Source: Alphaproteobacteria bacterium
GTDB lineage: Bacteria; Pseudomonadota; Alphaproteobacteria; CALKHQ01
Direction: 5' to 3'
DNA length: 64,000 nt
Assembly (NCBI GenBank): GCA_965227515.1
Contig: CBDDFZ010000001.1
Coordinates: 3,808,001 to 3,872,000 of the forward strand
Shown: piece by piece, positions 19,107-33,722 of the stretch
Position numbering within the stretch: position 1 is the stretch's first letter
Layout of the letters: each line of letters opens with the position of its first letter
The notes under the pieces: model-generated
Told to the model about the DNA's origin: nothing
The model's database searches: none
Seen by the model: only the letters and a program-made list of their open reading frames with translations
Translations under genes and position numbers: made by a program

Positions 19107-22100
19107 TTACTCCGCAGCCTCAGGCACCTGGTCCGGGTGCCAGGGCTCGTCGGACTTGCGCTCTTCGGCGGCCTTGGCCTCTCGGGCCTCCGCCTTGGCC
19201 TGCTTGCGTTCGCGCCGGCGGTCGCGCCAGCCGCGCAGATTGGCGCGGAACATCAGCGCCGACGGCGTGACCAGCAGGGTCAACACGGTGGCGAAGGTCA
19301 GGCCGAAGGCAATGGCGGTGGCCAACTGCACCCACCACTGGGTCGACGGCGCGCCAACGCTGACGGTGCGCGAGAAGAAGTCGATGTTGATCTGCAGCAC
19401 CATCGGCATCAGGCCCAGGATGGTGGTCACCGTCGTCAATAGCACCGGGCGCAGCCGCTGCGCGCCGGTCAGCAGGATCGCCTGCCGCGGGTCCTTCACC
19501 GTCTTTTTCAGGCGGTCGTACGTGTCGATCAGCACGATGTTGTTGTTGACCACGATGCCGGCCAGCGCGATCACGCCCACCCCGCTCATCACGATGCCGA
19601 ACGGCTGGTTGGTCAGCAACAGGCCCAGCATGACGCCGATGGTCGACATGATCACCGCCGACAGGATCAGCACCGCCGAATAGAAGCTGTTGAACTGGGT
19701 CACCAGGATGATCGCCATGATGAACAGGGCGACGATGAAGGCGTTCGACAAGAATTCCTGCGCCTCGGCCTGTTCCTCGTCCTCGCCGCCGAAGGCGATC
19801 TGCACCCGCGGGTCTATCTCCGCATCGGCCAGCCAGGCCCGCATCTCCTGCACCAGGTCAGCGGCAAGCAGCGGGTTGCCCTGGTCGTCCCTCATGTCCG
19901 GGTTGATGTCGGCCTTCACCGTCATCAGGCGCATGCCGTCGGTGCGGGTCAGATTGCCGACCCGCGGCTCCGCCACCCGGGTCACGAAATTGGAGATCGG
20001 CACCAGCCCGACATCGGTCATGATGCGGATATTGTCCAGCATCGACAGGTCGCGGTACTCGGCCTCGTAGCGCGCGACGATATCGATCTCCTCGTCGGCA
20101 TCGTCCGGGCGGTACTCGCTGAACTTCAGCCCGTTGGTGACCAGCCGGATCAGGCTGCCGACCGAAGCAATGTCAGCACCGAACTTGGCGGCCTGGGCGC
20201 GGTCGACCTCGATCTCCCACTCCACGCCGGGCAGCGGGCGCGAATCCTCGATATCGACAAACGCGCCATGGTCCTCCAGCGCCGCGCGGAGCTGGGCAAT
20301 CACCGGCGGGATCGCCTCGGGATACTGCGACGAGACCTCGAGCTGGATCGGCTTGCCGACCGGCGGGCCGGCCTCCTGCTCGCGCACCTCGACGCGGATA
20401 CCGGCCAGTTCCGCCGCGCGTTCCAGGATCTCGTGCTCGATCTCCTTCGCGGAGCGCCGTTGGTCCCACTCGACGAACTCGATCTGAATGGTGCCGATCA
20501 CGTCCTCGGCCGCATCGTTGCCTTGCGCCTGACCGGCAGCGCGGGTGTAGACCGACTTCAGCTCACGATGCTGGTTGCCGACGTCGAGCACGATGTCCTC
20601 GACCTGGCTGACCAGGAAGTTCTGTTCCGCCACCGACAGGTTGCCGCGGGCGAACACCTGGAAGCTCACCTGTTCCGGCTCGACCTCGGGGAAGAACTCG
20701 ACGCCGCGGCCGAACGCGCCATAGGCCATCTGGGCCGCGATCAGGCTGGCGAACGCGATCAGGATGACCTTGCCGGGGTGGCGCAGCGCAAACCCCAGCA
20801 TGCCGAGGTACACGCGCGTGACTCCTCCGGTCTGCTTCAGCGCCGCCTCGGTGTCGACTGACGGGTCCTCGCCCGACAGCAGGCGCATGCGCTCCACCTT
20901 GGCCGGGTCCATCTTCGGCTGCTTGCGCCCGATGACACTGCCCAGCACCGGCACGAAGATGAGCGCCATCAGCAGCGAGGCCGACAACGTCGCAATCAGG
21001 GTTATCGGCAGGTACTGCATGAACTTGCCGACCAGGCCGGGCCAGAACAGCAGCGGCAGGAAGGCGGCCAGCGTGGTCGCGGTCGACGCGATGATCGGCC
21101 ACGACATCCGCTTGGCGGCGGCTCCATAGGCCTCCCGCCGGGTCTTGCCCTCGGCGAGTTTTCGGTCGGCGTACTCGGTGACGACGATGGCGCCGTCCAC
21201 CAGCATGCCGACCGCCAGGATCAGCGCGAACAGCACCACGATATTGATGGTCAGGCCCATCAGCGACAGCACCAGGATGCCGGTCAGGAACGAGCCCGGA
21301 ATGGCGACGCCGACCAGGCCGCCGGACTTCAAGCCCAGCGCGCCGACGATGACGATCATCACCAGCAGGACCGCGCTGATGACGTTGTTCTGCAGGTCGC
21401 CCAGCATGCGCCGGATGTCCTGGCTGCGGTCGCCCGAATAGGTGATCTCCACCGCGGCCGGGATGAACTCGCGGTACTGCTCGACCACCGCCTTCACCGC
21501 CTCGATGGTGTCGATCAGGTTCTCGCCGCTGCGCTTGACCACTTCCAGCGACACCGCGGCCTCGCCATTGATGCGCGCATAGGCTTCGCGGTCCTTGAAC
21601 GCACGGCGCACGACGGCGATGTCGCGCAACAGCACCGTGTTGTCGCCATCCACAACCAGCGGCAGGTTCAACAGGTCGTTCAGGCTTTCGAACAGGCCCG
21701 GCACGCGGATCGCGAACCGGCCGTCGCCGGTGTCCAGCTCGCCCGCCGCCACCAGGCGGTTCGACCGGTCGACCACGGACGCCAGTTCCGATGGCGACAG
21801 GCCGTAGCTTTCGATCAGCAGCGGGTCGACCAGCAGCTCGACCACTTCTTCCCGGTCGCCGGCGATATCGACGCTGAGCACGGAGCCGACCTGCTCGATG
21901 GCATCCTCCAGCCGCCGGCCGACCGCCAGCAGCGAGCGCTCCGGCACCTCGCCATGCAAGCTGACCGTGATCACCGGGAACAGGCTGAAATTAACCTCGT
22001 TGACGGTCGGGTCGTCGGCCTCGTCAGGCAAGTTCGGCTTGGCGCGGTCCACCTCCTCGCGCACGTCCTCCAGCGCCTGGTCGGCGTCGAACCCGGCCTC

Positions 22101-22388
22101 GAACTCCAGCGTCACGTTGGCGCCGCCCAGATAGGCGGTCGAGGTCATCTCCTTGATGCCCTCGACGTTTACCACTTCCTGCTCGACCGGGCGGATCAGC
22201 AGGCGCTCGGCATCCTCGGGCGAGATGCCCTCCAGCGACATCGACACATAGATGATCGGAATGTTGATGTCGGGCTCGCTCTCCTTCGGGATGGTGACAT
22301 AGGCGAAGGCGCCCGCGATCAGCAGCAGGACCAGGATCAGGATGACCGAGCGCGTGCGATGCAGCGCGGCTTCGATCAGGGTGATCAT
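19107..22388 (-). CDS. RND efflux permease (AcrB/AcrD/AcrF family)
   Basis: GMLVDGAIVVTE, GIVVNNNIVLID, RLRPVLLT. Confidence 0.95.
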   Translation of the reverse strand: MITLIEAALHRTRSVILILVLLLIAGAFAYVTIPKESEPDINIPIIYVSMSLEGISPEDAERLLIRPVEQEVVNVEGIKEMTSTAYLGGANVTLEFEAGFDADQALEDVREEVDRAKPNLPDEADDPTVNEVNFSLFPVITVSLHGEVPERSLLAVGRRLEDAIEQVGSVLSVDIAGDREEVVELLVDPLLIESYGLSPSELASVVDRSNRLVAAGELDTGDGRFAIRVPGLFESLNDLLNLPLVVDGDNTVLLRDIAVVRRAFKDREAYARINGEAAVSLEVVKRSGENLIDTIEAVKAVVEQYREFIPAAVEITYSGDRSQDIRRMLGDLQNNVISAVLLVMIVIVGALGLKSGGLVGVAIPGSFLTGILVLSLMGLTINIVVLFALILAVGMLVDGAIVVTEYADRKLAEGKTRREAYGAAAKRMSWPIIASTATTLAAFLPLLFWPGLVGKFMQYLPITLIATLSASLLMALIFVPVLGSVIGRKQPKMDPAKVERMRLLSGEDPSVDTEAALKQTGGVTRVYLGMLGFALRHPGKVILIAFASLIAAQMAYGAFGRGVEFFPEVEPEQVSFQVFARGNLSVAEQNFLVSQVEDIVLDVGNQHRELKSVYTRAAGQAQGNDAAEDVIGTIQIEFVEWDQRRSAKEIEHEILERAAELAGIRVEVREQEAGPPVGKPIQLEVSSQYPEAIPPVIAQLRAALEDHGAFVDIEDSRPLPGVEWEIEVDRAQAAKFGADIASVGSLIRLVTNGLKFSEYRPDDADEEIDIVARYEAEYRDLSMLDNIRIMTDVGLVPISNFVTRVAEPRVGNLTRTDGMRLMTVKADINPDMRDDQGNPLLAADLVQEMRAWLADAEIDPRVQIAFGGEDEEQAEAQEFLSNAFIVALFIMAIILVTQFNSFYSAVLILSAVIMSTIGVMLGLLLTNQPFGIVMSGVGVIALAGIVVNNNIVLIDTYDRLKKTVKDPRQAILLTGAQRLRPVLLTTVTTILGLMPMVLQINIDFFSRTVSVGAPSTQWWVQLATAIAFGLTFATVLTLLVTPSALMFRANLRGWRDRRRERKQAKAEAREAKAAEERKSDEPWHPDQVPEAAE

Positions 22389-23506
22389 GACGCAGCTCCG
22401 TCCTGGGCCGGCACGATGGGCCCGGAATCCTGGAACACCGGCTCGACCAGCGCGCCGTCGCCGACGAACTCCTGCCCGACGGTGATGATGGTGGCGCGCT
22501 CCGGCAGCCCGGCGACCCACATGCCGTCAGGGGTGTCGGCCAGGATATCCACCTCGGCGAACCGCACGATGTTGCCGTCGACGACGATGCGCACGCCGAT
22601 GGCGCCATCGTCCGCCAGCGCGATCACGGAGGGGCTGATCAGGTGGGCCATCGACTGCTCGGCCGGAATATGCAGCTCCGCGGTCATGCCGTCGGCAATA
22701 CTGGCGTTCGGGTTCTCGACCTCGATCTCGACCCTGAACGTGCGGGTCGCCGGATCGGCGGTGCGCGACACGTAACGAATGATGCCCTCGATGGGCTGGC
22801 CGCCCGCAAGACGGCCCATTGCCGGCGCGCCGACCTGCACCAGCGACACGTCCTGCTCGGTGACGCCGCCGACCATCAGCATCGGCTGCAGGTCGATCAA
22901 CATCGCCACCACATCGCCGCCGCGCACATATTGGCCCATCTCCACCGGGCGGGAATTGACCACGCCAGCGAACGGCGCGGTGATCGTGGTGTCGGCGATT
23001 TCCTCGGCGATGGCGGCGCGCTGGGCCCGCGCGGCATCCAGGTTGGCGCGCGCCGTGGCAAGCTGAGTACGCGCCGAATAGCCGTTCTGGGCAAGCTGGG
23101 CCGCGGCGGAATACTCGATCTCGCGCTGCTGGATCAGGGCGTCGGCCTGGGCCAGTCGCGCCTCGCGGTCGGCCATCGAAAGCTGCACCAGCGGGTCGCC
23201 GGCATTCACATAGGCGCCTTCCTCGACCAGGATCTGGGCGACCGTGGCGTCAATCTCCGCCGCGATGGCGACCTCGCGCGAGGCCTCGGTATGGCCGCGC
23301 AGCACGATGTCGCGTTGGAACGGCTCCGCGACGAATTCGGCCACACGCACACGGAATGCGGCCTCCTCCTGCGCGCCGTTCTCCACGGTGGCACCGGTCT
23401 CGCCGTCGCCGGTCCCGCTGTCCGGGTCGCCCATGATCACGCCGGACATGATCCAGGCGGCGGCCCCGATGGCGATGACGAGTGCGATGATGATCGACGT
23501 GCGCAT
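22385..23506 (-). CDS. RND efflux periplasmic adaptor (MFP)
   Basis: N-terminal anchor, ITAPFAG, ADPATRTFRVE. Confidence 0.93.
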   Translation of the reverse strand: MRTSIIIALVIAIGAAAWIMSGVIMGDPDSGTGDGETGATVENGAQEEAAFRVRVAEFVAEPFQRDIVLRGHTEASREVAIAAEIDATVAQILVEEGAYVNAGDPLVQLSMADREARLAQADALIQQREIEYSAAAQLAQNGYSARTQLATARANLDAARAQRAAIAEEIADTTITAPFAGVVNSRPVEMGQYVRGGDVVAMLIDLQPMLMVGGVTEQDVSLVQVGAPAMGRLAGGQPIEGIIRYVSRTADPATRTFRVEIEVENPNASIADGMTAELHIPAEQSMAHLISPSVIALADDGAIGVRIVVDGNIVRFAEVDILADTPDGMWVAGLPERATIITVGQEFVGDGALVEPVFQDSGPIVPAQDGAAS

Positions 23507-23532
23507 GGCGCTATTCCAATTCTGAGGAAAGA

Positions 23533-24150
23533 CTATTCGGCGGCTTGCGGCGGCGCCGTGACATCGTGGGCCGTGGCATCGTGGTCGGACATGCGATCGA
23601 CCGCCGGCCGGCTGTCGATCTCGCCGGCCACCGCGATGTTGGCCAGCAGCTCGTGACGGTGGCCATCCAGGTAGTCGACGGCGGCGGTGCACATGGCGCG
23701 CGCGAAACCGCGCACGAAGTCGACGCCGGGCGACACGCCGGCGCACTCAGGCTTGCTGTTCAGGTGGTCCAGCTTGGCGCGATAGCGGTCGGCATGGGTG
23801 TCGATCATCGCCTCGACGAAGCGCACCGGTAGCAAATGCGCGAAGCACATGCGGAACAGGAATTCCGACCGCAGACGGTCCTCGCCCGGCGCGCTGGCCA
23901 GTTCGTCCAGCAACGCCAGCTTGCCGCGCTGGGTGATGCGATAGACCTTCTTGTCCGGCCTGTTGTCCTGGGCCTGCTCACGACACTCGACCAGGCCCTC
24001 GGCATCCAGCTTGCGCAGGGCCGGGTAGACGGAGCCGAAGCTCGCCTGGGTCATGTTCGAGAACGGCCCCTCCACGATGTTCTTGCGGATTTCATAGCCG
24101 CTGGCGTCACCCTTGGTGAGCACCGCCAGACAGACGGAACGGGCATCCAT
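23533..24150 (-). CDS. PadR family transcriptional regulator
   Basis: SGYEIRK, ASFGSVYPAL, RPDKKVYRIT. Confidence 0.93.
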   Translation of the reverse strand: MDARSVCLAVLTKGDASGYEIRKNIVEGPFSNMTQASFGSVYPALRKLDAEGLVECREQAQDNRPDKKVYRITQRGKLALLDELASAPGEDRLRSEFLFRMCFAHLLPVRFVEAMIDTHADRYRAKLDHLNSKPECAGVSPGVDFVRGFARAMCTAAVDYLDGHRHELLANIAVAGEIDSRPAVDRMSDHDATAHDVTAPPQAAE

Positions 24151-25030: not shown

Positions 25031-25720
25031 TTGCGTGAACAATCATTGGCCGGGCTGGCAATTCTGGCCGGGCTGCCCGAAGAAGATCTGAACGATCTGG
25101 AGGCGAAGTGTACCTGGCGACGGTACGCGGGCAATCAGATCATTCTCGACCAGCATGCGACCACGAACGAAGTCTGCTTCGTCGTGACCGGCGCGGTGCG
25201 GATTGTCAGCTACGCGCCGAGCGGGCGCGAGATATCGTTCAGCGACGTGCCGGCCGGCGGCTATTTCGGCGAACTGGCCGCCATCGACGGGGACCCGCGC
25301 TCGGCATCGGTGATTGCCCTGGAGCCGACCAATATCGCGGCAATGGCCGCCGACCCATTCATCGACCTGTTGGTGGAGTATCCGTCGGTGGCGCTGGCCG
25401 TCATGCGCGACCTGACCCGCATCATCCGCTCATCGACCGCACGGATCATGGACCTCAGCGTCCTCGGTGCGAACAACCGGGTGCAGGCCGAAATCCTGCG
25501 CCTGGCGCGCGAGGCATCGAAGGACGGGCAGACGGCGCGGATCTGGCCGATTCCGGTGCACAGCGACATCGCGGCACGGGTCAGCACGACGCGCGAAACC
25601 GTGGCGCGCGTGCTGAGCGACCTGTCGCGCCACGAATTGGTCGCGCGCGAGGGCCACGTTCTGGTGGTGCGCGACATCAACCGGCTGTCCGCGATGGTGG
25701 AGGCCGTCCACGAAGCCTGA
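25031..25720 (+). CDS. Crp/Fnr family transcriptional regulator (CRP-like)
   Basis: cNMP pocket GYFGELAAIDGDPRSAS; HTH STTRETVARVL; GGAGG RBS before TTG. Confidence 0.93.
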   Translation: MREQSLAGLAILAGLPEEDLNDLEAKCTWRRYAGNQIILDQHATTNEVCFVVTGAVRIVSYAPSGREISFSDVPAGGYFGELAAIDGDPRSASVIALEPTNIAAMAADPFIDLLVEYPSVALAVMRDLTRIIRSSTARIMDLSVLGANNRVQAEILRLAREASKDGQTARIWPIPVHSDIAARVSTTRETVARVLSDLSRHELVAREGHVLVVRDINRLSAMVEAVHEA

Positions 25721-25743
25721 CCTACCCCGCTTCGGCCCGCAAA

Positions 25744-25778
25744 GGGGTTGCCAATTGGGGTTACTAAATGGGGTTACC
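25744..25778. repeat. Three direct repeats GGGGTTRCY with 13-bp period
   Basis: Starts at 25744, 25757 and 25770, upstream of the fasciclin gene. Confidence 0.7.
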
Positions 25779-25837
25779 CTGGGGCCGAAACATTTCTAGA
25801 TTGACGCATTCCCTGTTCAAAAGGAGGCCAACCTACA

Positions 25838-26434
25838 ATGAGTCTGCAGGACCTGTTGAACCGGCGCACCGCCGCCGGTGTTGCGGTGGCGGTGAGCATG
25901 ATCGCGCTTACCGCGTGCAGCCAACGTGGCGCTGTCACCGCCGACGCCAGCGCCGACGCGACCGTCACCGCTGACGCCACTGCCGATGTCACCGCCGACG
26001 CGACGGCCGATGTCAGCGCGCCCAGCGGCGACCTGGTCGACACCGCCGCCGCGGCGGGCAGCTTCTCGACCCTGATCGCGGCGGTGCAAGCCGCCGGTCT
26101 GGAAAGCGTGTTGCGCGGCCCCGGCCCCTACACCGTGTTCGCCCCCACCGACGAGGCGTTTGCCAGTTCCCTGCCGGAAGGCACGGTCGAGTTGTTGATG
26201 CAGCCATCCAACAACGCGCGCCTGGTGCAGATCCTGCAGTACCACATCATCTCCGGCGAACTGATGTCGGCGGACGTGGCCGGGTCCTCGGTCGCCCGCG
26301 CGACACTGGAGGGCCGCGAAGTCGAGATCGACGGGACCAGCGGTTTCGAAGTCGACGGTGTGACCATCACGTCGGCCGATGTGGAGGCCTCCAACGGCGT
26401 CATCCACGTGATCAACGAGGTCCTGCTGCCATAG
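25838..26434 (+). CDS. Fasciclin (FAS1) domain lipoprotein
   Basis: Lipobox LTAC, TADA low-complexity linker, YTVFAPTDEAF, NGVIHVINEVLLP. Confidence 0.92.
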   Translation: MSLQDLLNRRTAAGVAVAVSMIALTACSQRGAVTADASADATVTADATADVTADATADVSAPSGDLVDTAAAAGSFSTLIAAVQAAGLESVLRGPGPYTVFAPTDEAFASSLPEGTVELLMQPSNNARLVQILQYHIISGELMSADVAGSSVARATLEGREVEIDGTSGFEVDGVTITSADVEASNGVIHVINEVLLP

Positions 26435-26479
26435 GGCACGCCAGACAAAACAGCGGGATTGGCGCGGATCGTTTCGACG

Positions 26480-26495
26480 TGTGACTGAGGTCACA
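26480..26495 (+). promoter_or_regulatory. CRP-type box, copy 1 (centre at -41.5)
   Basis: Perfect TGTGA-ctgagg-TCACA. Confidence 0.75.
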
Positions 26496-26528
26496 TGCAA
26501 ATTGACTTGGTGCGCTTAAGTATGGAGC

Positions 26529-26591
26529 ACCTTCAGATCCCCTCCTGATGAACGCTGCCTCAAACGCCCGGCCCCGTGCCGGGCGTTTTTT
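26529..26591 (+). ncRNA. Putative sibling sRNA copy 1
   Basis: ACCTTCAGATCCCCTCCTGATG + 7 nt + CCTCAAAC GC-rich hairpin + T6. Confidence 0.7.
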
Positions 26592-26655
26592 CTTGTCTGC
26601 TTTTCTTGTCAGCGCAGCGCTGGGAAACCGCCGTCATTTTGCCGGCCGACCGGCC

Positions 26656-26671
26656 AGTGACCGCCGTCACA
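26656..26671 (+). promoter_or_regulatory. CRP-type box, copy 2 (centre at -41.5)
   Basis: AGTGA-ccgccg-TCACA; -10-like CATATC at 26693. Confidence 0.7.
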
Positions 26672-26704
26672 TGGCGTTCCGGACGCTGCCCCCATATCCC
26701 GAAG

Positions 26705-26769
26705 ACCTTCAGATCCCCTCCTGATGAACACTGCCTCAAACGCCCGGCCTCGCGCCGGGCGCTTTTTTT
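26705..26769 (+). ncRNA. Putative sibling sRNA copy 2
   Basis: Same invariant 22-mer, hairpin and T7. Confidence 0.7.
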
Positions 26770-26818
26770 GGCGCGACGGCAAGGCCGCGACCGGCGCCAT
26801 TCGCCCGCCGGACCGGCC

Positions 26819-26834
26819 AGTGACCGCCGTCACA
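26819..26834 (+). promoter_or_regulatory. CRP-type box, copy 3 (centre at -41.5)
   Basis: AGTGA-ccgccg-TCACA; -10-like CATATC at 26856. Confidence 0.7.
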
Positions 26835-26867
26835 TGGAATGCGGGCCCCTGCCCCCATATCCCGAAG

Positions 26868-26933
26868 ACCTTCAGATCCCCTCCTGATGCGTACAGCCTC
26901 AAACGCCCGGCCTTGTGCCGGGCGTCTTTTTTT
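26868..26933 (+). ncRNA. Putative sibling sRNA copy 3
   Basis: Same invariant 22-mer, hairpin and T7. Confidence 0.7.
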
Positions 26934-26981
26934 GCTCCGGTGGCGCGCGAACCAAAAAATTTCAACCGGAAGGTCGACTTG

Positions 26982-27626
26982 ATGAACAGAACAGGGCTGG
27001 CCATCGCCGCGAGCGTGCTGCTGTCGCCGGCAGCAGCCTGGGCTCAGGATCCCGTTCACTTCGCGCTGCCCGACGTCGGAACCGAAATCGAGTGGTCGGG
27101 GGGACTGGTCGCAGAGGTGACGGAGGTCGAGCCCGAGGATCGCGCCTACAAGATGGCGCTCTCCTATCCCAACAACTACCGCCAAGTGCAGAACGTGGTC
27201 GAAGGCCTGCAGACGAATGCGTTGTGGCTCTATAATGACAACGGCGACCTGATTTCCGAGAACAACACCATCTTCGACCGGGCGGCGCTGACCGGCTTCT
27301 GGCCGCTGACCCTGGATGCGCAGATTACATTCACCGGCACGGAGTTCACGGATGGCGGGCCCATGTCAGCCTGGGAGGCCACGCTGACGGTGGAAGCGTT
27401 CGAGACCGTGTTGACGCCGCTTGGCCTGGTCGATGCCGTGCGCGTGCGCCGCATCGACGAGCTGACCGCCCAGGCCAACGACGACCTGCCGATCGACAGT
27501 GTCGAGGCGGTGATTTGGTACGCACCGTCTGTCGGCATGACGGTCAGGGCCGAGGTCACCCACTACGATGGCGACCAGGTTGTGCAATCGATCAGCTTCG
27601 TGCCCGAGAGCATCACCCTGCCCTGA
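26982..27626 (+). CDS. Hypothetical secreted protein
   Basis: Signal peptide (AAWAQ), acidic beta-rich mature region, WYAPSVG; lies between sRNA copies 3 and 4. Confidence 0.75.
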   Translation: MNRTGLAIAASVLLSPAAAWAQDPVHFALPDVGTEIEWSGGLVAEVTEVEPEDRAYKMALSYPNNYRQVQNVVEGLQTNALWLYNDNGDLISENNTIFDRAALTGFWPLTLDAQITFTGTEFTDGGPMSAWEATLTVEAFETVLTPLGLVDAVRVRRIDELTAQANDDLPIDSVEAVIWYAPSVGMTVRAEVTHYDGDQVVQSISFVPESITLP

Positions 27627-27650
27627 CGCCGCGACGGTAAATTTTAGGTG

Positions 27651-27666
27651 GGTGACAGCCGTCACA
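27651..27666 (+). promoter_or_regulatory. CRP-type box, copy 4
   Basis: GGTGA-cagccg-TCACA; -10 TATATT at 27688. Confidence 0.7.
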
Positions 27667-27700
27667 GCGGTTTCAGGCGAGCTGCCCTATATTCAAGCTC

Positions 27701-27762
27701 ACCTTCAGATCCCCTCCTGATGCACAGTCCCTCAACGCCCGGCCCCGCGCCGGGCGTTTTTT
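27701..27762 (+). ncRNA. Putative sibling sRNA copy 4
   Basis: Same invariant 22-mer, hairpin and T6; convergent with mmcB. Confidence 0.7.
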
Positions 27763-27772
27763 CTTGGATGTC

Positions 27773-28258
27773 TCAAAGGCCAGACAACCCCGGATCGACC
27801 ATGCGGTGCAGGCGGCTGGCGGCCGCCAAGCCATAGCGCAGCATCACCGCGCGGCGCCGCGACGGCGCCACCTTCTGCACGGCGGCCGGGCGCACCACAT
27901 CGGCGCCGTGACCGTCTGCCACCAGAATGCCGGTGTCGTCCGGGAGCAGCGCGGTATCGAACGCCGCCGGCACGGCAAAGAAGAACAGATCGCAATAGGG
28001 CAGGTACTCGGGCCACTTCCGGTCCGCCCGCAGGTCGGCCACGCTGGTCTTGATCTCCACGATGGCGATCGTCCCGCGGTCGTCGATGCCGACCACATCG
28101 GCTCGGCGTCCGTTGCGCAGCACGAACTCGGGCAAGGGCTGGTACCCGCCGGCCGCAAGCCAGCGGCTCACCCCCCGGCAGACTTCCAGTGCCGGCGCCC
28201 GGCCGTCCACGACCGGCTCGCCGGCATCGGCACCGATAAATGTTTTGGTTATGTTCAT
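27773..28258 (-). CDS. mmcB: MmcB family DNA repair putative endonuclease
   Basis: GRRADV, IVEIKTSVADLRADRKWPEYLPYCD; true start likely downstream of 28258. Confidence 0.88.
   Translation of the reverse strand: MNITKTFIGADAGEPVVDGRAPALEVCRGVSRWLAAGGYQPLPEFVLRNGRRADVVGIDDRGTIAIVEIKTSVADLRADRKWPEYLPYCDLFFFAVPAAFDTALLPDDTGILVADGHGADVVRPAAVQKVAPSRRRAVMLRYGLAAASRLHRMVDPGLSGL
28242..28256 (-). promoter_or_regulatory. Alphaproteobacterial LexA box (one mismatch)
   Basis: Minus strand GAAC-ataacca-AAAC versus GAAC-N7-GAAC at the 5' end of mmcB. Confidence 0.6.
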
Positions 28259-28315
28259 GGCCGCATTAGGCCATGCCCGACCCGGCAGGTCAACGCACCG
28301 CTGGATGAAACGAGA

Positions 28316-29731
28316 TCAGCGCTCGCCGAACGCGGAGTTCAGCGCGTTGTAGACCGGCTTCACCATGTAGGAGAGCAGCGAGTGCTCGCCGATGTTGATC
28401 GAGACCTGGGCCTGCATGCCGGGCACGATCTCGTGGCGGTCGACGCCTTCGCCCACGCCGGTCTCGTCCAGCGCGATGATGGCCTTGTAGTAACTCTGGC
28501 CTTCCTCATCGACGAAGGTGGATGCCGAGACCCGCACCACCCTGCCCGGCACCATGCCGTAACGCGAGACGTCGAAGCCTTCGATAATGATCTCGGCGGT
28601 CTGGCCAACCGTAACGTAGCCAACGTCGCTCGGCTTCAGGCGCGCCTCGACCTCGAGCACGCCGTCGACCGGCACGATCTCGGCCACCGTCGCGCCCGGG
28701 GCCAGCACGCCGCCACCGCCGCCGATGGCGACCAGATTGATCACGCCGCGCACCGGTGCGCGGATGGCCAAGCGTTCGACGCGATCCTCGAAGCGGCGAA
28801 TGGACTCGTCGAGTTCCGCCAGTTCCGTGGCCACACGGCCAAGCTCATTGGCCGACTGGTTGCGCTGCGTCAGTTCCAGCTCGGTCTGCTGCTGACGGAT
28901 CTCTTCCACCCCCTGCATGGCGCTCAGGATGTTGCCGCGTGCCTCTTCCAACTCGCCGACGGTGCGGACATAGGCGCTTTCGACCTCGAGCCGGCGCGCG
29001 CGCGACCCCCAGCCCTGCGCTTCCAGTTGCTGCTGCATGGCCAATTGCCGGCCGACAACGTTGACCTGCTGTTCCAGGCTCTCGACGCGGCCTTCCAGTG
29101 TCTGGACCTCCAGTTCCCTTTGCGCCAGTTGGCTGTCCAGGATCGCGCTTTGACCATTCAGGCTGTCCACCCACAGCTCGTAGATGGCGATCTGGTCGAA
29201 CGCGATCTCCGGGTAGTCATGGATGAACGCGTCGAAGTCGGGCTCCAGCCCCATGCTCTGGGCACGCAGCCGCTCGACCTCCACCGAAAGTGCTGCGTGG
29301 CGCACCATCATCTGGTCCAGGTCGGCATTGTTGGCAACGGGGTTGAGCTGGGCCAGTGGCTGGCCGACCTCGACAAGGTCGCCCTCCTGCACCAGCACCG
29401 ACTGTACGATGCCGCCCTCCAGGTGCTGAACCGTCTGCACCTGGCCGGCCGGCACGACCGAGCCTGCGGCCACCGAGGTGGTCACGACGGGAACCACCGC
29501 CGACCACAGGGCACCGCCGATGATGAACAGGAAGATCGCCAGCACGGCGTAGAACCCGGCGCGAGGCGGCCCGGACTCCTCCAGCATGGTGGCGCTGGAC
29601 AGAAGCGTGAGCTGGCGGCGATTGCCGTCGCCGCCCTTGGTCATGGCCGCAGCCAGAATGTCGCCGCGGCGGCCGGTGTCCTGGCCGGCGGCGCGCAGGG
29701 CCAGTCCCGCTGCGTTGCTGTGCGCGGTCAT
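28316..29731 (-). CDS. HlyD family type I secretion membrane fusion protein
   Basis: VQHLEGGIV, IRAPVRG, PGM, YMVKP. Confidence 0.93.
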   Translation of the reverse strand: MTAHSNAAGLALRAAGQDTGRRGDILAAAMTKGGDGNRRQLTLLSSATMLEESGPPRAGFYAVLAIFLFIIGGALWSAVVPVVTTSVAAGSVVPAGQVQTVQHLEGGIVQSVLVQEGDLVEVGQPLAQLNPVANNADLDQMMVRHAALSVEVERLRAQSMGLEPDFDAFIHDYPEIAFDQIAIYELWVDSLNGQSAILDSQLAQRELEVQTLEGRVESLEQQVNVVGRQLAMQQQLEAQGWGSRARRLEVESAYVRTVGELEEARGNILSAMQGVEEIRQQQTELELTQRNQSANELGRVATELAELDESIRRFEDRVERLAIRAPVRGVINLVAIGGGGGVLAPGATVAEIVPVDGVLEVEARLKPSDVGYVTVGQTAEIIIEGFDVSRYGMVPGRVVRVSASTFVDEEGQSYYKAIIALDETGVGEGVDRHEIVPGMQAQVSINIGEHSLLSYMVKPVYNALNSAFGER

Positions 29732-31893
29732 GACTTCTGACCCATCAGCTTCGGCACGATGACGTCCGGTGCCGCGTCCGCTACCAACATGCCGCGATGG
29801 AACACCACCACCCGGTCAGCCAGTTTCATGTGGCTGGGGCGGTGGGTCACGTAGATCACGGTCGCACGGCCGCGCACCGCCGTGAGCGCGGTCATGAACG
29901 ACGAGTCGCCGGCGTTGTCGAGTGCCGCCGATGCCTCGTCCAACAGCAGGATCGCCGGGCGGCGCACATAGGCGCGCGCTAGCGCCAAACGCTGCATGAA
30001 GCCGGCAGGGAAGCCCGCATTGCGATGGTCGCCGATGCGGGTCGCAAACCCTTCGGGCAATGCCTCAATTTCCTTCAGGACCGCCGCGAGCCGGCACGCC
30101 TCGGCCAGATCCTCATCGGACGCCGCCGGGTTCGACATGCGCAGGTTCTGGCCGATGGTGCCGTAGAAGCTGACCGGCACCTGGGGCACGTAGCCGATGG
30201 ACTGGCGGAGCTCGATGGGGTCGAGCTGGCGGGTGTCGATGCCGTCGATCTCCACCACGCCGGCGCTCTGGCGATAGAGGCCCAGCACGATCTTCAACAG
30301 CGTGGACTTGCCCGAGCCGCTGGCGCCGGTGACGGCGATCAATTGCCCCGGCTGGATATTGAGGCTGACACCCTGCAGCGCCGGATCGTTGCCCCCGGCA
30401 TAGCGGTGGCTGACGTTGGTGAGCTGGATGTGACCGCGGTAGAGGATGCGCTGCGACGACCGCGAGGTGGAGCGCTTCTCGCCCTGGAACCGCATCAACT
30501 GGTTGAGCTGACGCACCGACTGAATGATCTGCTCCAGGCGGTTGATCAGCATGAAGCCGGACTGGATCGGCGCCAGAACCCGCCAGATCAGGGTGGTGGT
30601 CGCGATCAGCGCGCCCACGGTCATCAGGCCGTCCATCACCCGCACGATGCCGAAGCCCAGGGTCGCGATGCCGGCCACCATCATGATCGAGATCGTGACG
30701 TTCTGGATGGTGGCGGTCTGCGCCGCGACCTTGAAGTTGGCCATGGCGACGTCGGCCGACAGGTCGCGGAAGCGTTCGGCCCACACCCGCTCGCCGGAGA
30801 GCTGCTTGATGGAGCGCATGTTGGCCAGCGCCTCGACCGCCAGGATGTGGCGCTCGGAGCGAACCTTGCCCGACTCCTTCACCTGCCGCTTCAACGCCGG
30901 CAGCGCGAAGATGCCGAGCACGATGAAGGCGAGGATCAGGACCAGCGGGATCGCGACCAGCGGCCCGGCGACCAGCCAGATCACCGCCAGGAAGACCACC
31001 ATGAACGGCAGGTCCATGGCCAGATTGGCCAGCGGCGAGGAGAAGAAATCGCGCAGGGACTCAAACTCCTTCAGGCGCGAGATCTGGCCGCCGACGGGCG
31101 CGCTGGCGGTGTAGCCGATGGGCAGCGACAGCACCTGCTCGAAGGCGGCCGTGCCGATCAGGAACTCCATCCGGGCCGCGATGTGCGACTGGATGCGCGC
31201 GCGCAGCGCCCGCATGCACAGCTCGATGCCCAGCGCGCCGAACACGCCGACCACCAGATAGACCAGCGTGTGCGGCGCCTGGGCGCCGATCACCCGGTCG
31301 AAGATGGTCATGATGGTCAGCGGCACGATGATCATCATGATGTTGGCGAAGAAGGTCAGCGCCAGCGCCCACGCCACCAGCCGGCGGAACCGCGAGGCGA
31401 TGCCGGCGAACCAGTTCTCCGGCGGCCGATCCTCGTTCTGGTGCGGAATGTCGATCGCCTCGATGACGTAGGCCGTACCTTCCGGCAGGTCCTTCGCAAG
31501 CTGGCGCTCTTGGCCCGTTTCAACGTCTAAGACGGTCGGTTGCCGCCCGCCGCTCAGCGCCACGAAGGGCACCCCGCGGTCGGAGACGAACAGCATCGGG
31601 AACATGCGCTCATCCAGGCGGGACAGGCGACCGCGGATCGGGGACGTGCGATACCCCAGCCGCACAAGGACGTTGCGCAGTTCGCCGAGGTCCAGGTCCT
31701 GCGCGAAGTGCGGCAGCGCCTCGGTCAGGTCGCGGGCATCGCCGCGCCAGCCGAGCACGTTCAAGAGCGGCATCAGGCAAGCCGAGAACGCGCTCAGCTC
31801 GGTCTGCCCGCCCGGTCCGATATTGTGCAGCGCGGCCTTCAGGGCTTCGGCCTGCTCTCCCGCGGTTTGCGCGGTGGCGAGCTGGATGCTCAT
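29728..31893 (-). CDS. Type I secretion ABC transporter with N-terminal C39-like domain
   Basis: TMD plus NBD (GASGSGKST, LLLDE, VTHRP). Confidence 0.9.
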   Translation of the reverse strand: MSIQLATAQTAGEQAEALKAALHNIGPGGQTELSAFSACLMPLLNVLGWRGDARDLTEALPHFAQDLDLGELRNVLVRLGYRTSPIRGRLSRLDERMFPMLFVSDRGVPFVALSGGRQPTVLDVETGQERQLAKDLPEGTAYVIEAIDIPHQNEDRPPENWFAGIASRFRRLVAWALALTFFANIMMIIVPLTIMTIFDRVIGAQAPHTLVYLVVGVFGALGIELCMRALRARIQSHIAARMEFLIGTAAFEQVLSLPIGYTASAPVGGQISRLKEFESLRDFFSSPLANLAMDLPFMVVFLAVIWLVAGPLVAIPLVLILAFIVLGIFALPALKRQVKESGKVRSERHILAVEALANMRSIKQLSGERVWAERFRDLSADVAMANFKVAAQTATIQNVTISIMMVAGIATLGFGIVRVMDGLMTVGALIATTTLIWRVLAPIQSGFMLINRLEQIIQSVRQLNQLMRFQGEKRSTSRSSQRILYRGHIQLTNVSHRYAGGNDPALQGVSLNIQPGQLIAVTGASGSGKSTLLKIVLGLYRQSAGVVEIDGIDTRQLDPIELRQSIGYVPQVPVSFYGTIGQNLRMSNPAASDEDLAEACRLAAVLKEIEALPEGFATRIGDHRNAGFPAGFMQRLALARAYVRRPAILLLDEASAALDNAGDSSFMTALTAVRGRATVIYVTHRPSHMKLADRVVVFHRGMLVADAAPDVIVPKLMGQKS

Positions 31894-33722
31894 GACGCCG
31901 CCTGCACGGTCGGCGACGGCTGAACCGTCGCAGGCACCTGGCCGCTTTTCGCGGCCGGCCGCGGGGGCCCATCGGCTGCCGTCACCAGCTGGCCATTCAC
32001 CAGCTGCAACCGGCGGTCGGCGAAGTTCAGCAGCGACGGGCGGTGGCTGGCGACGACCATCGTCACCGTGCCCCGCATCTCCAGCAGCAGGTTGCGCAGC
32101 AACTCGTCGCTGTCCTTGTCGAAACCGCTGTTGGCCTCGTCGAACAGCACGATGCGCGGCTCGCCGACAAGCGCGCGGACCAGGGCGATCTTGGTTCGCA
32201 CGCCGCCCGGCAGCGCGTAGGTCATGTTGTCGCCGATCCAGGTATCCAGGCCATCCGGCAGGCGCGCGATGGTCTGCTCCAGCCCCAACTTGCGCGACAG
32301 TTCCAGCGCGGACTCCATCGCCTCCTGACCGCGGAACATGGTCAGATTGTCCAAGAGCGTCCCCCTGAACAACGACGAGTATTGCGGCAGGTACGCGATC
32401 TGGTCGCGCAACAGCCGCGGGTGCAGTTGATCGGAGGGATAGATGTCGAACTTCAGCGTGCCGCTGCTTGGCTGGATCAGCCCGCTCATCACCCGCAACA
32501 AGGTGGACTTGCCGCTGCCATTGTCGCCGGCGATGCTCACGGTCTCGCCCGGCGCGATGTCCATGCTGACGTCGCGCAGGATCGGTGCGTTCCGGTCACC
32601 GCCATAGGCATAGGTGACATGCTCCAGCCGGATCGCGCCGGCAAGCTTGCCCGGATCGCGGAACTCGCCCGCCGTTTCGGAGGGCATGTCGGCGATGCCG
32701 CTGATGCGGTTTTCCGCGACCTCGATGCTCTGGAACTGGGTCCAGATGCTGACCGCGCGCAGCAATGGCTGGATTGCGCGACCACCCAACAGGGTGCACG
32801 CGGCCAGCGCGCCCATCGTCATCTGCTGGTCCAGCACCAGCACGGCGCCGAACGCGGCCAGCGCGATCATCGACACGTTCGCCGACATCGCGCTGATGGT
32901 CTGCGACATGCCCGAGTGGTAGGCCACCCCGGAAGCCGCCTGGGCCGAGCTGGCCTGCAGGCGCTCGTAGCGGCGGACCATCAGCTTCTCGATGGCCAGG
33001 CCCTTGATGTTGTGGATGCCGTTCAGCACCTCGATGATGAAATTATAGCGCCGGTCGTCCAGCGTGGCGCGCTCGCGCAGCGCGCGGCTCAGGTTGCGAC
33101 CAACCGCCACGGTAAGTGCCGCGCTGATCACCATGACCACCACCGGTACGATGATCAGCGGTCCGCCGATGAACCCGATCAACATCAGGAAGATGACGAC
33201 GAACGGCAGGTCAACCAGATGCAGGATCGCCTGGCCGCCATAGAAGTCGCGCAACGTGTCGATGGCGCCGAACCGATCCAGGTGGACGCCGACCGCGTCG
33301 CGCTCGAAGGCCGTCAGCGGTGCGTCGAGCATGCGGTCGATCAGCCGCTTGTTCAGCGCATGCTCGAAGCGGGCTGCACTCCAGGCGGTTACTCTGGCGC
33401 GCACGATCCGCAACACAGTGTCCAGGACAACGGTCAAAGCCAGGCCGGCCATCAGAAGACTGAGCGTGTCGGTCGCCTGGTTGGGGATGATCCGGTCGTA
33501 GGCCTGCAACATGACGATCGGCAGCCCGAGGGCCAGGAGATTGCTGCCGAAACTTGCGGCCAGAATGTCGGGACGGGAGAAGGCGAGCCCGGGAAGACGG
33601 CGGAGGATATTGGACTTGCCGCTGGGCACAGCACGGCCCTTGGCGGCGGGGGTGGTCCCCGCGCCCGCATTGCGAGCCCCACCAATGGGCCCGATCTGGC
33701 TCGGTCGCGCAGCGATGCTCAA
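31890..33722 (-). CDS. Type I secretion ABC transporter (second subunit)
   Basis: QAYDRIIP TMD, GDNGSGKST, LFDE, SHRPS. Confidence 0.9.
   Translation of the reverse strand: MSIAARPSQIGPIGGARNAGAGTTPAAKGRAVPSGKSNILRRLPGLAFSRPDILAASFGSNLLALGLPIVMLQAYDRIIPNQATDTLSLLMAGLALTVVLDTVLRIVRARVTAWSAARFEHALNKRLIDRMLDAPLTAFERDAVGVHLDRFGAIDTLRDFYGGQAILHLVDLPFVVIFLMLIGFIGGPLIIVPVVVMVISAALTVAVGRNLSRALRERATLDDRRYNFIIEVLNGIHNIKGLAIEKLMVRRYERLQASSAQAASGVAYHSGMSQTISAMSANVSMIALAAFGAVLVLDQQMTMGALAACTLLGGRAIQPLLRAVSIWTQFQSIEVAENRISGIADMPSETAGEFRDPGKLAGAIRLEHVTYAYGGDRNAPILRDVSMDIAPGETVSIAGDNGSGKSTLLRVMSGLIQPSSGTLKFDIYPSDQLHPRLLRDQIAYLPQYSSLFRGTLLDNLTMFRGQEAMESALELSRKLGLEQTIARLPDGLDTWIGDNMTYALPGGVRTKIALVRALVGEPRIVLFDEANSGFDKDSDELLRNLLLEMRGTVTMVVASHRPSLLNFADRRLQLVNGQLVTAADGPPRPAAKSGQVPATVQPSPTVQAAS

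Follow-up and report, generated by a model that had tools for sequence, protein, structure and literature searches.

A stretch of alphaproteobacterial DNA, the window of 64,000 nucleotides (nt) at G000:C1:3808001-3872000, carries four sibling units that have the makings of small RNA (sRNA) genes, each behind its own binding box of the CRP type. The genome, G000, comprises 5,518,080 bases in contigs of 4.07 and 1.45 Mb and is 67% G+C; positions given without a contig are those of the window. The four units are a new sRNA family of a known kind, and the sequence observation is real. The explanation that best covers the whole, and that is considered probable, is that of four CRP-driven sibling genes for trans-acting sRNAs whose C-rich seed opposes the Shine-Dalgarno (SD) sequence of messenger RNAs, in other words anti-SD sRNAs.

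The common element of the units is a 22-mer, ACCTTCAGATCCCCTCCTGATG, which matches the + strand at 26529, 26705, 26868 and 27701, every time with 0 mismatches. At up to three mismatches the chance expectation in the window is 0.00 (100 shuffles), and a search of all 5,518,080 bases at the same tolerance returns only these four copies. After the 22-mer each copy runs through 7 variable nt, the motif CCTCAA(A)C, a hairpin of the form CGCCCGGC-N5-GCCGGGCG and a run of six to seven T, giving units of 62-66 nt:

26529..26593, + strand: sRNA copy 1, with loop AUCCCCUC, a linker with CCUCAAA and the terminator T-run at 26586-26591
26705..26769, + strand: sRNA copy 2, terminator T-run at 26763-26769
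26868..26933, + strand: sRNA copy 3, terminator T-run at 26927-26933
27701..27762, + strand: sRNA copy 4, flanked by convergent genes

All four terminators are recovered by a consensus scan, which finds 6 terminator-like sites in 25700-28300 where 1.7 are expected. The predicted RNA fold consists of a 4-bp stem (UCAG/CUGA) closing the 8-nt loop AUCCCCUC, a single-stranded linker and the terminator, with z-scores of -4.42, -4.15, -3.48 and -4.23 for copies 1 to 4; none of 200 shuffles folds as well as any copy. A small open reading frame (ORF) was also considered and rejected: an ATG ends the 22-mer, but what precedes it is an anti-SD and not an SD sequence, and the codons that follow differ among the copies.

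Upstream of every copy lies a box of the form GTGAC-N4-GTCACA, perfect in copy 1, and no further TGTGACNNNNGTCACA site at up to 2 mismatches occurs in the window:

26480..26495, + strand: box 1, TGTGACTGAGGTCACA, a perfect TGTGA-N6-TCACA palindrome
26656..26671, + strand: box 2, AGTGACCGCCGTCACA, 1 mismatch to TGTGACNNNNGTCACA
26819..26834, + strand: box 3, AGTGACCGCCGTCACA, 1 mismatch to TGTGACNNNNGTCACA
27651..27666, + strand: box 4, GGTGACAGCCGTCACA, 1 mismatch to TGTGACNNNNGTCACA

Between box and RNA each copy has a hexamer that resembles a -10 element:

26517..26522, + strand: TAAGTA, copy 1
26693..26698, + strand: CATATC, copy 2
26856..26861, + strand: CATATC, copy 3
27688..27693, + strand: TATATT, copy 4

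The distance from box centre to the first base of the 22-mer is 41.5, 41.5, 41.5 and 42.5 bp in copies 1 to 4, and that from box centre to the first base of the hexamer is 29.5 bp in all four, as it is at an analogous locus in a genome of another family (G009, described below). If transcription starts 7 nt after the hexamer, the box would occupy the class II activation position, -41.5, in every copy. A scan for consensus sigma-70 promoters finds no -35/-10 pair in 25700-28300, which fits activator-dependent promoters.

The copies have diverged unevenly. The 22-mer is 100% identical in 6 of 6 copy pairs, whereas identity falls to 29-86% in nt 23-29 of the linker and, in the spacer from -33 to -13, to 38-52% among copies 1, 2/3 and 4 (71% between copies 2 and 3). 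A preliminary description of this DNA had reported the four identical 22-mers with their shared RNA body, the box with its constant spacing, and a spacer that had drifted while box and spacing were kept; all of this is borne out. Could the units simply be functionless repeated DNA, such as a recently duplicated terminator-containing repeat? Copies 2 and 3 do form a tandem duplication with a period of 163 bp, as such a repeat would. However, copies 1 and 4 share with them only the box, the spacing and the RNA, the DNA in between being at near-random identity; the element is found only here and is not dispersed, and the box is common to about 20 other intergenic sites. A functionless repeat is on these grounds highly improbable.

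A candidate for the cognate regulator is encoded two genes, or 0.8 kb, upstream of the array:

25031..25720, + strand: gene for a CRP-clade transcription factor, 229 aa from a TTG, the start codon being uncertain

The product matches the Pfam families cNMP_binding (9.4e-18) and HTH_Crp_2 (2.5e-10). Its best solved relative is Sinorhizobium meliloti Clr (7pza, 2.1e-18), followed by GlxR-type entries of Corynebacterium, Mycobacterium tuberculosis CRP and Escherichia coli CAP, so that the solved relatives matched best are all cyclic-nucleotide-binding CRPs. The segment FGELAAIDGDPRSAS aligns with the phosphate-binding cassette of Clr for cyclic nucleoside monophosphates (cNMPs), and the FGE...RSA cassette is intact. 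The recognition helix reads TRETVARVL, with RETVAR where E. coli CAP has RETVGR. In a structural study of the CAP helix R180-E-T-V-G-R185, the two arginines touch G2 and G4 of TGTGA, while E181 touches the C opposite G4 (PMC10187061); all three contact residues (R, E, R) are kept in RETVAR.

These features also bear on the sign and the signal of control, for the box might instead mediate repression, or redox control of the FNR type, and not activation by a cyclic nucleotide. A site placed over the -35 region can repress, and FNR-type members with an E-x-x-S-R helix are encoded in the genome. The FNR half-site, however, is TTGAT, and the half-site here is TGTGA; there is no -35 element for a repressor to occlude, and the adjacent regulator combines an intact cNMP cassette with only two cysteines and has no FNR-like cluster. 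Repression or redox control is thus very unlikely, and the redox half of the control that the preliminary description had proposed is not supported.

The box behaves as a regulon motif across the genome. GTGAC-N4-GTCAC occurs 30 times, against 1-10 times for 11 control palindromes with permuted half-sites, and GTGACNNNNGTCACA 23 times, where the reversed control has no match. Three sister-genus genomes give 16, 12 and 6 matches to GTGACNNNNGTCACA, against 1, 1 and 1 for the control. Many boxes of the home genome are intergenic, those about 20 sites coming in addition to the four before the sRNAs. When 20 box-adjacent ORFs were scanned with Pfam (E <= 0.001), 11 had a match and 9 fell in no family. 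The matches are an Hcp of type VI secretion, two RTX-repeat proteins, a Peptidase_C58-like, a MotA/ExbB-like and a pentapeptide-repeat protein, a fatty-acid desaturase, a PhyH dioxygenase, Dus, a zinc-type dehydrogenase and a metallo-beta-lactamase-fold protein. The box-linked genes, among them those for Hcp and for the RTX-repeat, Peptidase_C58-like and MotA/ExbB-like proteins, hint at a regulon concerned with the cell surface and with interactions with other cells. The hexamer spacing recurs at some of these sites: the box at G000:C1:3999844 (- orientation), 167 bp upstream of the hcp gene, has TAAGTT at 29.5 bp, and that before the MotA/ExbB-like gene has CTAAAT at the same distance.

Further box sites have features of their own. 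The two RTX-repeat proteins flank boxes at C2:1094836 and C2:1096795. Behind the box CGTGACGGCGGTCACA at G000:C1:3082213 (- orientation) come the TGCAAAT of unit 1, CAATAT near -10 and a strong 14-bp hairpin; this box may drive another short RNA or a leader, and a pair of cyclase and CRP genes (C1:3088017-3089319) stands 6 kb away. Downstream of the box at G000:C2:740704 (- orientation) a strong terminator (GCCCGGGCG hairpin and T7) stands at about +190 to +235, with no ORF detected between.

Box and regulator are associated beyond the home genome as well. A scan of GTDB species genomes with the regulator protein returned one relative, 55% identical, at locus L092 of an alphaproteobacterial metagenome-assembled genome (MAG), where boxes TGTGACGCGCGTCACT and TGTGACGACAGTCACT lie 29 and 52 nt past the stop codon of the homologue. 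G009, a genome of the same class but of a different family, has a homologue of 47% identity with boxes GGTGACCACCGTCACG and TGTAACGGCGGTCACT after it. In both cases the two boxes fall within about 70-100 nt past the stop codon, and the helices of the two homologues read RETVAR and RETVSR. Together, the adjacent CRP-clade gene, the enrichment of the box, its association with the regulator and the lack of a sigma-70 promoter in the consensus scan uphold the CRP-type promoter that the preliminary description had put before each copy: the in silico tests all favour, and support, a predicted activator-dependent promoter of this type before each of the four anti-SD-type sRNA genes.

The regions around these foreign boxes have some structure of their own. 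At the tandem-box site of G009 (L117, 2230-2400) the downstream transcript would hold ACCUCCC, a hairpin and GGAGG 8 nt before an ATG, and may be a self-masking leader. In the MAG, L092 5707-6000 has a long GC hairpin and a CCACCUCC motif before a response-regulator gene.

The protein genes that stand among and beside the units allow another arrangement to be considered:

25838..26434, + strand: gene for a fasciclin-domain protein (Pfam Fasciclin, 5.7e-33)
26982..27626, + strand: between copies 3 and 4, gene for a 214-aa protein that looks secreted and weakly matches DUF3108_like (1.8e-4, short of the curated cut-off)
27773-28258, - strand: MmcB-like gene, convergent with unit 4

The units could be cis elements of a + strand row crp-fasciclin-(1-3)-DUF3108-like-(4), a series of CRP-dependent promoters and attenuating terminators through which transcription of 26982-27626 is adjusted, or they could be 3' ends left by the processing of read-through mRNAs; either way the short RNA would arise only incidentally. 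Every element is co-oriented, a protein gene precedes both unit 1 and unit 4, and the 26982 gene, which has no recognisable promoter, starts 49 nt past the last T of the unit 3 terminator. The CcsR sibling RNAs of Rhodobacter, moreover, are reportedly co-transcribed with the gene upstream, which also counts for this arrangement. Against it, unit 4 faces a convergent gene and attenuates nothing; copy 4, lying between convergent genes with the MmcB-like gene on the minus strand, is therefore no leader of a downstream gene. Conservation peaks in the 22-nt 5' segment (6/6 pairs at 100%) and not in the terminator loop or the spacer, as a base-pairing seed predicts, and the analogue in G009 stands alone between unrelated genes. 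A role in cis, or an origin as mRNA fragments, is unlikely on this evidence, and independent sRNA genes remain the preferred reading.

Elsewhere in this neighbourhood, a terminator-like hairpin with a T-run occupies 26962-26977 of the - strand, in the gap that separates unit 3 from the 26982 gene. The flanks at 19107-24150 and 28316-33722 hold, on one side, an RND efflux pump with its fusion protein and a PadR regulator (PadR assigned by Pfam, the others from translations) and, on the other, a type I secretion set of an HlyD-family protein and two ABC ATPase/permease genes (from translations).

Do the RNAs belong to a described family? A scan of the whole window against Rfam 15 gives no match at gathering thresholds. 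A permissive scan, with E up to 10, gives 29 matches, among which those that fall on the four copies stay far below threshold:

SorX (RF02784): 19.4-22.1 bits on the four copies, against a gathering threshold of 46.6
suhB/MmgR (RF00519): 15.1-20.9 bits on three copies, against 41, the fourth having no match at E <= 10
ar14: 17.3 bits on one copy, against 58.8

The home genome has two true MmgR genes, found at 52.0 and 48.2 bits by a whole-genome search with RF00519, and both are outside the window:

G000:C1:1099881-1099954, - strand: MmgR/suhB gene with GUUUCCUCCCU linker, AT-rich promoter and no CRP box
G000:C1:1927093-1927162, + strand: MmgR/suhB gene with the same linker, an AT-rich promoter and no CRP box

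The four siblings are absent from the RF00519 whole-genome matches at E <= 0.1. Since the true MmgR genes lie elsewhere and have the GUUUCCUCCCU linker, and the siblings score below threshold, the siblings are not MmgR. The genomes of the sister genus likewise have two MmgR genes each. A C-rich candidate sRNA (CCUCCAUGUCUCCC...UUCUCCCU and a terminator) was also seen at G000:C1:334524-334603 (- strand), with a sub-threshold suhB score of 32.7 bits.

A search of the literature on sibling and anti-SD sRNAs of Alphaproteobacteria, on CgrA, CyaR and Clr found no description of these RNAs; a sequence cannot be searched for in text, so Rfam is the test, and for Rfam 15 the earlier statement that the family is undescribed holds. 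The preliminary description had also proposed a model-based search for homologues that co-occur with the box. In this search the home copies stand out, and among the matches inspected elsewhere the co-occurrence appears only in G009. A covariance model of the RNA alone (R1), run on 61 genomes, has a match at E <= 0.001 in 24 of them, foreign matches scoring 23-33 bits against 89-96 for the home copies; of 27 foreign matches inspected, 26 are ordinary gene terminators without a box, and the one with a box is that of G009. A model of box plus RNA (R2) was run on 151 genomes, one per alphaproteobacterial family and each at least 90% complete. It scores the home copies at 119-136 bits, G009 at 39.1 and everything else at 29.3 or less, and among the four alignments that were read the box is seen only in G009. 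An architecturally similar RNA is thus found in 1 of the 150 other alphaproteobacterial families sampled.

The G009 locus has a TGTGATTAATGTCACA box, TATGGT at the 29.5-bp spacing and then an RNA that folds alike (z = -4.4 to -5.2), in which a 5-bp stem (AUACC/GGUAU) closes the 7-nt loop CCUCUCU and a linker containing CCUUCC and CUCAAA leads to a terminator. The RNA reaches 30.5 bits on suhB, which is below threshold, sits between unrelated genes and may be homologous to the four siblings or convergent with them. Among 8 genomes of its family mates, 19 further R1 matches were inspected and none has a box. In the sister genus, 46 box orientations in 30 loci (from the 34 matches listed) show no T5 run within 170 nt. 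The crp-fasciclin pair is conserved there (G001) with no RNA array after it, R1 matches in the 7-kb syntenic locus staying at 8.7 bits or less. Metagenome contigs scanned for exact 18-mers give 4 chance matches, none with a box or a terminator, and blastn against plasmids turns up nothing beyond 29 nt of terminator shared with 2 Hymenobacter plasmids. Within these samples the family appears confined to a genus-level lineage, namely the home genome and a near-identical strain, apart from the similar RNA of G009.

What the RNAs could do is suggested by their seed, GAUCCCCUCCU, of which 10 of 11 bases match the 3' end of the organism's own 16S rRNA. That end is GGATCACCTCCTTTCT, ...GGAUCACCUCCUUUCU, and the seed differs from GAUCACCUCCU at one base. 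The features by which an anti-SD sRNA is recognised, a U-tailed intrinsic terminator and a C-rich seed complementary to the SD sequence, are present in the units, and Hfq is encoded in the genome. Transcription, the start site, activation by the adjacent CRP, Hfq dependence and targets are predictions from these letters, and together they suggest the following course. A dimer of cNMP-bound CRP, most likely the product of 25031-25720, would sit on the TGTGAC-N4-GTCACA box at about -41.5 (class II) and recruit RNA polymerase to a promoter that has no -35 element. The four sibling genes would be transcribed independently, each yielding a trans-acting RNA of about 62-66 nt, so that a rise in the cyclic nucleotide would fire all four together and give a high dose of RNA. 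The invariant C-rich seed would be presented in and around the loop of the small 5' hairpin; a second CCUC stands in the linker, and the U-tailed terminator would suit Hfq. The RNA would then pair with the SD regions of a set of mRNAs, block initiation and repress translation.

Could the resemblance to 16S rRNA itself be the function? The RNAs might be a cyclic-nucleotide-triggered mimic of the 16S 3' tail, an anti-SD decoy that competes with ribosomes for SD sites genome-wide. This alternative is quite unlikely; if it were true, the decoy would favour sites of the AGGAGGGG type and slow translation initiation throughout the cell to a degree set by its dose, for instance when the cell enters a starved, resting or surface-associated state.

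The reading of four CRP-driven anti-SD sRNA genes has several points to its disadvantage, and one concerns the targets. The target scans covered 9,285 SD-bearing candidate start regions. RNAduplex sites at -17 kcal/mol or below number 1,546 for the seed against 1,596-2,543 for 5 shuffled seeds, and contiguous complementarity of at least 8, 9 and 10 nt occurs at 114, 27 and 2 sites against 7-125, 0-28 and 0-7 for 20 shuffled seeds, so that on neither measure does the seed do better than shuffled ones. Of the longest contiguous seed matches eight were scanned with Pfam; these stand at genes for an ABC ATPase, two ABC substrate-binding proteins, an OmpA-family protein, three oxidoreductases and an HPPD-like dioxygenase, which are candidates without statistical support. 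Pairing of the RNA with the ribosome-binding sites of three neighbouring genes is generic. The scan also met a dispersed repeat containing GTTGGGTGGCCGGGAGGGGGTGTGGGC, at C1:2515650, 1316642, 2917480, 3660482 and 3693195 and C2:281436 among other places.

Further such points concern the promoter, the thinness of the sign of selection and the distribution of the RNA. The position of -41.5 leans on a start inferred from weak -10-like hexamers (TAAGTA, CATATC). In favour of the reading, a close relative in X2, one of two public DNA runs in which the stretch occurs, shows a weak sign of purifying selection: at 95-99% likeness, its contigs cover 186 nt of units 1 and 4, boxes and terminators included, with 0 differences, whereas the 69 intergenic nt that immediately precede boxes 1 and 4 have 5 (Fisher p = 0.0013). 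The X2 contigs are shallow, however, at a depth of 2.6-4.0, so that single differences may be errors, and coding DNA, with 10 differences in 619 nt, does not differ significantly from the units (p = 0.07). The likeness of the G009 RNA is loose, its 5' end aligning 5 nt off, and no homologue of the RNA is found in the three sister-genus genomes.

The identity of the regulator is also open to argument. The genome has 14 HTH_Crp_2 matches, the adjacent gene among them, and the R-E-x-x-x-R helix occurs in two paralogues of the CRP family besides, at C1:1301058-1301846 (39% identical to the adjacent regulator) and C1:3088615-3089319. The sRNAs could be exactly as described but with the box read by one of these two, in which case the signal would differ, being another nucleotide or a non-nucleotide ligand. 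With the helix common to all three proteins, the paralogue at 3088615 has in its favour that it directly follows a class III cyclase domain (3088017-3088523), the box at 3082213 being 6 kb off. Such domains (PF00211) number 24 genome-wide, of the same order as the 28 reported for S. meliloti (PMC10127613). None of the three sister-genus orthologues of the adjacent regulator (68-70%) has a box within 1.5 kb, so that the crp-fasciclin pair is kept there without one nearby. However, the box-flanked proteins of the MAG and of G009 are reciprocal-best to the adjacent regulator, at 243 and 179 bits against 151 and 120 to the closest paralogue, and the only boxes of the window are the four beside the 25031-25720 gene. 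Another member of the Crp/Fnr family as the reader of the box is therefore a possible but not a likely variant, and the adjacent CRP remains the preferred regulator.

If the reading of four CRP-driven sRNA genes is confirmed, the locus would be a compact module in a little-studied alphaproteobacterial lineage, comprising a sensor CRP, its DNA site, four co-regulated RNA genes and a defined seed. It would leave the understanding of sRNA or CRP mechanism as it is, and the mechanism would surprise no specialist. The distribution is narrow.

Among described sRNAs, MmgR/alpha-r8 (suhB) is similar in having a short 5' hairpin, a CCUCC-type linker and a terminator within about 70-77 nt, and suhB ranks first or second among the sub-threshold Rfam matches of three copies and of the G009 RNA; it differs in the family linker GUUUCCUCCCU, in the lack of a CRP box at its members in the home genome and in score, the siblings reaching 15.1-20.9 bits against 41. 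SorX of Rhodobacter is the top sub-threshold match, by way of its 5' AUCCC and terminator, but the alignment omits most of the first hairpin of the model. C-rich anti-SD motifs are known in Alphaproteobacteria from AbcR1/2 and from CcsR1-4, the 'cuckoo' RNAs, the latter under RpoHI/II and with co-transcription. In Vibrio the Qrr siblings share one invariant seed and have individual activator-dependent promoters, the activator being sigma-54/LuxO, and Qrr1-5 thus resemble the present units in their multiple copies, invariant seed and own promoters. For the four copies Rfam gives no match to the Qrr, AbcR or CcsR families.

In its predicted control and mode of action the system resembles CyaR (RyeE) of E. 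coli and Salmonella, a CRP-dependent sRNA that represses at the SD sequence. CyaR has a class II CRP promoter and carries its seed in a C-rich apical loop; papers of 2008-2009 are said to have termed it CRP-dependent or Crp-activated. Unlike the four copies of the present alphaproteobacterium, CyaR is single-copy and belongs to Gammaproteobacteria, and it is not among the 29 Rfam matches at E <= 10, which leaves no match in sequence or structure. CyaR protects the SD sequence of hdeD (PMC5861431). Within Alphaproteobacteria the nearest parallel is SMelC181 of S. meliloti, whose gene Clr-cNMP directly activates; the function of SMelC181 is given as unknown, the Clr-activated promoters have distances of -42 to -76 from Clr-binding site to transcription start site, and the authors count few CRP-regulated sRNAs as known (PMC10127613). 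No other alphaproteobacterial sRNA under direct activation by a CRP came up in the literature searched. The likeness lies in the activator, Clr being the closest solved relative of the adjacent regulator. Clr itself differs in its helix, RPKVNR, and its TGTTAC-type sites, where the present system has RETVAR and TGTGAC, CAP-like at position 4. According to the structural study, the Clr site has a 4-nt spacer flanked by C6 and G11 (PMC10187061), and the boxes described here combine the CAP half-site TGTGA with just such a Clr-like 4-nt spacer and with C6 and G11. The locus would thus be a second alphaproteobacterial system beside SMelC181, with an obvious seed and the regulator adjoining, and would make post-transcriptional control by a cyclic nucleotide directly testable. 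CRP-activated C-rich sRNAs, and siblings with individual activator-dependent promoters, are already known kinds.

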